Below are positions 12,670 through 13,226 of a stretch of DNA of 14,550 bases, piece after piece. The notes below the pieces were generated by a model. It had not been told where the DNA came from. It worked only from the letters and a program-made list of their open reading frames with translations, and did no database searches. Numbering within the stretch: position 1 is the stretch's first letter; each line of letters starts with the position of its first letter. The translations under genes and the position numbers were made by a program. The stretch is taken from the NCBI RefSeq assembly GCF_003334335.1, contig NZ_QOWQ01000060.1; one strand, written 5' to 3'. Source of the DNA: Escherichia coli. GTDB taxonomy: Bacteria > Pseudomonadota > Gammaproteobacteria > Enterobacterales > Enterobacteriaceae.

Positions 12670-13004
12670 ATTGCACAGGCCGTAAGAACCAAACCACGAC
12701 TGAATGAAACTGGACTGGCGCCAGCAAGCCTGTTCAGACTGGGGCTGAACTTTTCCGGACTCTGAAAGATTACCAATACTCATCGTCCATCCGCTTGCTT
12801 TAGGCTGACAGGTTCATAATCAACGCAAACCAGAGCTGTACAGGCTTGGGCGCGGCTTTCAAACCAGTCGTGATCACGGCAATCAATTTTGAACTCTGCT
12901 TAACGGACATTTCTGTATAACCCTTACGGCAACGAAAAACGCGAAGTTAAAATTTTAGAAACCCAAAAACGTGACATGACTAAGTTTAGATTTCAGGGGG
13001 GGAG

Positions 13005-13033
13005 ATCAAAAAATTTCGCTCTGTGCCAGAGCG
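13005..13033 (-). terminator. Candidate rho-independent terminator, minus-strand sense
   Basis: A 7-bp stem CGCTCTG/CAGAGCG (13017-13033) with a 3-nt loop. On the minus strand it is followed by AAATTTTTT, so the U-run is offset by 3 nt. It lies about 200 bp downstream of the 13227 stop of the gene remnant. Confidence 0.25.
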
Positions 13034-13226
13034 GACATTCACGGAGCTGGTTCATTACCAATGAGGTTGGGCTTTTGAGGATAAATCAATGATCAGACGC
13101 CAACGTAAATCAAAAGCAACCCTGGAACGGAATTGCTAATCCAGTTTCTGACCATCGATTTTTCTAAAAAGTGTGCGTTTGCTACTACTTAGGTAGGTGC
13201 AGCTTTCTTAATCACCGGCAGCCACG

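Follow-up and report, generated by a model that had tools for sequence, protein, structure and literature searches.

The closest described counterpart of the sequence analyzed here is the interval between yjhV and fecE in E. coli K-12 MG1655 (NC_000913.3, 4510134–4510689), which lies unannotated between the yjhV pseudogene (b4286) and fecE (b4287). In that genome the yjhV pseudogene abuts IS911B-1, IS600, and IS30D, all of them in the KpLE2 phage-like element, and a pan-genome study has reported that yjhV and the fec genes co-occur (PMC11390585). We analyzed a 14,550-nucleotide stretch of E. coli DNA (contig NZ_QOWQ01000060.1; hereafter, the window) that carries the same locus, with fecE, the yjhV pseudogene, IS911, and IS30 likewise as neighbors of the spacer (556/557 bp). 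The two spacers differ in nothing of substance, namely a run of six G residues in K-12 against seven in the window (G6 and G7) and one C/A SNP at 13122. BL21-type strains lie 1 base from the window (99.8%, 556 bp), a difference that we take to be G6 alone, with the SNP absent; the SNP would then belong to the K-12 lineage. Three other described systems bear partial likenesses to parts of the spacer: the ISKpn21 transposase gene, of which it holds a relic; rho-independent terminators, with which it shares a G+C-rich 7-bp stem-loop followed by a T run, here on the minus strand; and the homopolymer contingency loci of Neisseria and Haemophilus, whose poly-G length likewise varies among strains. 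The locus itself has long been sequenced, and what our analysis adds is confined to the transposase relic and to the frequencies at which the G-run alleles occur.

The spacer comprises 557 bp (12670–13226) between two convergent genes, fecE on the plus strand and the remnant of yjhV on the minus strand, and it follows a fecIRABCDE unit (5124–12669) with IS remnants on either side. The sequence-only reading had found no ORF of 60 or more codons wholly inside this interval, and the ORF list agrees: the longest such ORFs encode 38 aa (12976–13092, plus strand) and 36 aa (12800–12910, minus strand). In the 100%-identical genomes that we inspected, RefSeq places no feature between the fecE stop codon (12669) and a minus-strand "hypothetical protein" ending at 13227, and nearly all records among the matches listed are without an annotated feature under the spacer. 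Two records (NZ_CP148289.1 and NZ_AP027779.1) carry a "hemagglutinin repeat-containing protein" annotation there, which looks spurious or shifted.

The spacer is widespread and nearly uniform within the species. We found it in 2736 of 5426 complete E. coli genomes, in single copy and with at least 99% identity in almost all of them, as well as on 13 plasmid records, all of which have E. coli-type fec genes. Many complete E. coli genomes match positions 12600–13700 with 100% identity, among them those of ATCC 11775, Nissle 1917, ATCC 25922, and O26 strains, and over the whole window the identity to ATCC 11775 is 99.8%. According to the annotation of that 99.8%-identical ATCC 11775 region, positions 1–5000, upstream of fecI, are a mosaic of insertion-sequence remnants (pseudogenes of IS66 tnpC and of IS1F, together with fragments of IS3 and IS5), amid which lie a phytase-like esterase gene (~1026–2384, minus strand), a YmgB/AriR-family gene (~3117–3410, minus strand), and the small gene ykiE (4919–4987, minus strand).

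Directly observed homologies, piece boundaries, and junctions divide the spacer into four segments, designated A to D (Table 1), and a length polymorphism is observed just as directly within the third. We consider it probable, at roughly 85%, that the spacer is a scar within the fec island (KpLE2 in K-12), an ordinary assembly of four leftover pieces without any sequence-specific function apart from giving converging transcripts a place to end.

Table 1. Features of the fecE–yjhV spacer and its neighbors (positions in the window)
Feature	Position	Strand	Description	Evidence
fecE	11902–12669	+	Last gene of fecABCDE; stop codon 12667–12669	ORF list and RefSeq annotation of 100%-identical genomes
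Segment A	12670–12810 (approximate end)	+	Native 3' flank of the fec operon	BLASTN homology to Citrobacter youngae
Segment B	12811–12890	-	ISNCY-family (ISKpn21-like) transposase relic, about residues 148–174, with DHDWFE...ACTALV motif	blastn, tblastn, NCBIfam
Segment C	~12891–13041		AT-rich piece, origin without a match; holds the G run and the hairpin	GC profile, searches
G7 homopolymer	12996–13002	+	Polymorphic in E. coli	Short queries across the run
Hairpin	13017–13033	-	7-bp stem (5 G-C pairs), 3-nt loop; weakly terminator-like	Consensus scan, fold
Segment D	13042–13226	-	Native non-coding 3' flank of a yjhV-type NAD(P)-binding gene	BLASTN against Raoultella terrigena
yjhV remnant	13227–13556	-	C-terminal ~110 codons of a ~250-aa NAD(P)-binding (NAD_binding_2/F420_oxidored) protein	K-12 annotation, homologues
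IS3-family pseudogene	13567–14471	-	IS911/ISEc52-like transposase pseudogene truncating yjhV	RefSeq; K-12 IS911B-1 feature

Segment A belongs to fec. BLASTN homology to Citrobacter youngae runs continuously from fecE to ~12803 at 71% identity, with similarity kept in the alignment to ~12812, and because this homology runs on past the end of fecE, we assign the segment to the operon's own 3' flank. At the fecE loci of other species, the match extends just 16 bp beyond the stop codon in Enterobacter soli and is absent from Silvania and Photorhabdus. Segment A is presumably the 3' untranslated region and termination zone of fec. A search for a convincing intrinsic terminator within it found none, and 12670–12790 fold no better than shuffled sequences (z = +0.71). 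One candidate for a conserved fecE terminator, GTTCAG...CTGAAC-TTTT at ~12742–12764, was weak and was set aside, with both its pairing and its T run lost in C. youngae. Near the far end of the segment, positions 12775–12804 (CAATACTCATCGTCCATCCGCTTGCTTTAG) are identical to C. youngae (extracted locus ~4860–4890) at ~25 of 30 bases.

Segment B is a fragment of a transposase gene. In a sensitive blastn search against plasmids, more than 1,400 records matched over 80 bp with 80% identity (E = 4e-9). These matches (query 142–220) always fall inside the transposase gene of ISKpn21, a member of the ISNCY family; in pCAV1193-258 the match corresponds to about residues 148–174 of a 467-aa transposase, read on the minus strand of the window. 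At the protein level, tblastn aligned 12819–12890 (KIDCRDHDWFESRAQACTALVCVD against QIDGCDHDWFEGRGPACTALVYVD) with residues 148–171 of 467, at 17 of 24 identical positions (E = 3e-6). The same 24 residues match NCBIfam NF033594 (profile positions 131–154 of 368, E = 0.0034), and this scrap of ISNCY transposase was the sole match when we scanned three minus-strand frames and the yjhV ORF against NCBIfam. Since the ISKpn21 match starts at 12811, where the Citrobacter homology ends, we regard this position as a true junction.

Segment B is a dead fragment and not an element. The NF033594 match scores 16.6 bits against a cut-off of 250 and is restricted to those 24 profile positions, and sensitive blastn against the ISKpn21 locus recovers the 80-bp core alone. 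About 5% of the 467-aa gene is recognizable, and, in contrast to ISKpn21 itself, neither a start codon nor inverted repeats nor flanking homology was found. Searching the conceptual translation against libraries of 5.8 billion proteins and 1.84 billion representatives for closer transposase relatives yielded spurious E. coli ORF calls only. We also tried a frameshift-aware alignment anchored on the core, which stretched the homology to residue 117; the flanks alone scored in the range of shuffled sequences, and we rejected the extension. The relic is unannotated in K-12 MG1655 (NC_000913.3, about 4510469–4510548) and in the RefSeq genomes inspected.

At the other end of the spacer, segment D belongs to yjhV. 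The BLASTN match to R. terrigena covers 13043–13558 at 85% identity, its homology ending at 13041/13042, and the stop codon of yjhV (13227) is native. Within the coding part of yjhV, identity to Raoultella is 91.5% and 19 of the 28 substitutions are in third codon positions, while the 184 bp past the stop codon are 76.6% identical. This flank is shared with Raoultella and less conserved than the coding part, and thus we interpret it as the gene's own, less constrained 3' flank. On its 5' side yjhV is cut by the IS911-type element. Proteins homologous to the yjhV translation go under the names 3-hydroxyisobutyrate dehydrogenase or dinucleotide-binding enzyme; for the remnant in E. coli, RefSeq uses "hypothetical protein" in some records and "NAD(P)-binding domain-containing protein" in others. 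In the R. terrigena chromosome (extracted locus 4001–4748) we observed a near-intact copy of ~250 codons with Pfam hits and a frameshift of its own, lying divergent from an HxlR regulator gene; a 51-aa ORF called in the Raoultella flank is interrupted by stop codons in E. coli. The suggestion that the interval is decayed coding sequence of the disrupted locus holds for about 80 bp of it (12811–12890, minus strand), as a transposase relic, and fails for yjhV, which keeps its native stop codon and its own flank.

Between segments B and D lies segment C, ~150 bp at 37–43% GC. Searches for copies outside this locus, in E. coli genomes (distant mode), plasmids, and phages, returned none, and its similarity to the ISKpn21 transposase is not significant. 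We also considered whether segment C continues the Raoultella flank in diverged form and rejected this, as local alignments scored within the range of dinucleotide shuffles. It may derive from some other element without a recognized relative. The G7 run and the A6 tract downstream of it (13008–13013), as well as the 7-bp-stem hairpin with its minus-strand T6, are present as the sequence-only reading had described them. Both kinds of feature occur about as often as chance predicts: the window contains one G or C run of at least 7 against 2.1 expected from mononucleotide shuffles, and 12 perfect 7-bp hairpins against 5.5 ± 2.8 in shuffles.

These pieces are consistent with a history in which past rearrangements would have brought an ISNCY-type element and an HxlR-regulated oxidoreductase locus together with the fec unit, with erosion following and IS911 later removing the 5' portion of yjhV. 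Transcripts arriving from the two sides presumably stop within the spacer, and letting them end there is probably the one function that it has. The near-identity of the spacer across E. coli most likely means that fec, spacer, and yjhV spread together recently, and not that the spacer is under selection, although near-invariance over thousands of genomes is in itself compatible with recent spread and with constraint alike. We count the difference between the yjhV flank (76.6%) and coding part (91.5%) toward an absence of constraint. Furthermore, in E. coli O55:H7 DEC5A an IS3-family element cuts the spacer 172 bp past fecE (window position 12841), and loss of the remainder is therefore tolerated. 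That element (extracted locus 4001–5440) has a programmed frameshift and is followed directly by a tyrosine integrase and a tRNA-Leu; yjhV and the remaining IS remnants are absent from the DEC5A locus.

The alternative that survives best concerns the hairpin, which on the minus strand reads CGCTCTG-GCA-CAGAGCG followed by AAATTTTTT (to ~13008) and might be a working intrinsic terminator that stops transcripts of yjhV and read-through from IS911 and IS30 before they run antisense into fecE. This reading is compatible with the scar model, to which it adds one functional part, and we hold it as tentative, with the balance tipping against it. The site passed the consensus scan on the minus strand in its pairing, G-C content, loop, and T-rich tail; the fold comes out as predicted; the hairpin is invariant across K-12, a metagenome contig, and an error-prone assembly; and its orientation suits transcripts arriving from yjhV. 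Moreover, positions 12400–13700 contain five terminator-like sites against 1.1 ± 0.9 expected, an enrichment of about five-fold. Such an excess is in keeping with non-coding sequence between genes that converge, and it makes some role in termination plausible.

Measured against rho-independent terminators, however, the stem is short, a 3-nt AAA spacer separates it from the T run, the stability is modest, and the site is a predicted one. The fold amounts to -10.6 kcal/mol on the minus strand (z = -1.5), against -12.1 kcal/mol on the plus strand (z = -2.9), and perfect 7-bp hairpins are common in the window. The site also lies just beyond the native yjhV flank, and nothing equivalent is present in Raoultella. 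In the supplementary text of a K-12 Term-seq study (PMC7815308), fecE, yjhV, and coordinates 45103xx–45106xx have no entry and no 3' end is given here, a weak negative because that study was performed with fec not induced; yjhV, too, may be silent in those conditions. The hairpin is thus a weak candidate for a terminator of the remnant gene, set back by the AAA before the T run, the modest stability, and the position outside the native flank.

Much further down in probability is the reading that the spacer encodes an unannotated small RNA or small protein, for which the candidates would be the 38-aa plus-strand ORF and a 41-aa minus-strand ORF (12658–12783); we judge this highly unlikely. Small ORFs do occur in the spacer, and the start region of the 41-aa ORF falls within the part of the fec 3' flank that is best conserved against C. 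youngae. Its frame and length, however, are not kept in that species, where there is an 11-nt gap and an earlier stop. The 38-aa ORF spans the G run, so that comparison of the sequences would put both its frame and its length in shift between the G7 and G6 alleles, and on reading the sequence we found no Shine-Dalgarno motif for it. When we searched the small-ORF translations in protein databases, the matches were limited to spurious E. coli ORF calls.

The suggestion of a small RNA found no support either. Rfam 15 gave no match for the whole window at gathering score, and in a permissive scan of 12400–13700 the best sub-threshold matches were to eukaryotic or archaeal families (E ≥ 0.37). A promoter scan returned a single weak promoter-like site, inside yjhV, and none in the spacer; searches of E. 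coli genomes, plasmids, and phages gave segment C no homologue outside E. coli-type fec islands; and literature searches for a small RNA or other described feature at the spacer returned nothing relevant.

The G run was described as slippage-prone, and it is polymorphic. Counting exact matches to short queries across the run among ~2729 records, we found the G6 allele in 1596 records, G7 in 1111, and G8 in 10, with no functional consequence evident. Among the matches listed, K-12 and BL21 derivatives carry the shorter run, which is G6 in K-12, and three Nissle 1917 assemblies are all identical to the window's G7 sequence. Both major alleles occur in strains that we take to belong to phylogroup B2, with G6 in ST131 and G7 in Nissle 1917 and ABU 83972, which suggests more than one slippage event or an exchange of the island. 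One assembly, GCA_900604235.1, appeared to be a diverged copy at 97% identity and was rejected as such, its difference consisting almost entirely of shortened homopolymers that are best read as errors of the assembly. In that assembly (extracted locus 3904–4873) A5 is shortened to A4, G7 to G4, A6 to A5, and T4 to T3, a pattern typical of sequencing error. A few of the rare G-run alleles, especially in long-read assemblies, may be artefacts of the same kind.

Three length alleles in the population, two of them at high frequency, and the presence of both major ones among B2 strains, whose typing is our assumption, would suit a phase-variation switch in which the length of the run (G6, G7, or G8) alters expression of a neighboring gene, an idea that we find barely credible. 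The run lies downstream of both flanking genes, with no promoter and no credible ORF around it: it sits inside the 38-aa ORF, for which we read no ribosome-binding site in the sequence, the promoter scan is empty at the run, and the best promoter-like hexamers nearby, read by eye, score just 8 of 12. Unlike the runs of the Neisseria and Haemophilus contingency loci, it is thus outside any gene or promoter spacer, and the clones among the matches listed, both the K-12 derivatives and the Nissle assemblies, show one length each. Some of the length differences between assemblies are, moreover, sequencing errors, as in GCA_900604235.1. We infer that G6, G7, and G8 are neutral alleles that arose by replication slippage and are stably inherited. 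Equally far-fetched, in our estimate, is a composite in which segment C would be a functional module of the fec island, with the hairpin and T run serving as a terminator or small-RNA 3' end and a G6/G7/G8 slippage switch altering that transcript or antisense read-through into fecE.

Reading the spacer as a scar accounts for the ORF-free gap downstream of fecE, which becomes a junction of leftovers and matters little in itself. If the hairpin does terminate transcription, fecE would be shielded from antisense transcripts of the IS cluster, a minor and local effect. For annotation, the point to record is that an ISNCY/ISKpn21-like relic sits in K-12 and in about half of E. coli. The G6/G7 polymorphism is a trap where homopolymer sequencing errors are concerned, and it could serve as a neutral marker.
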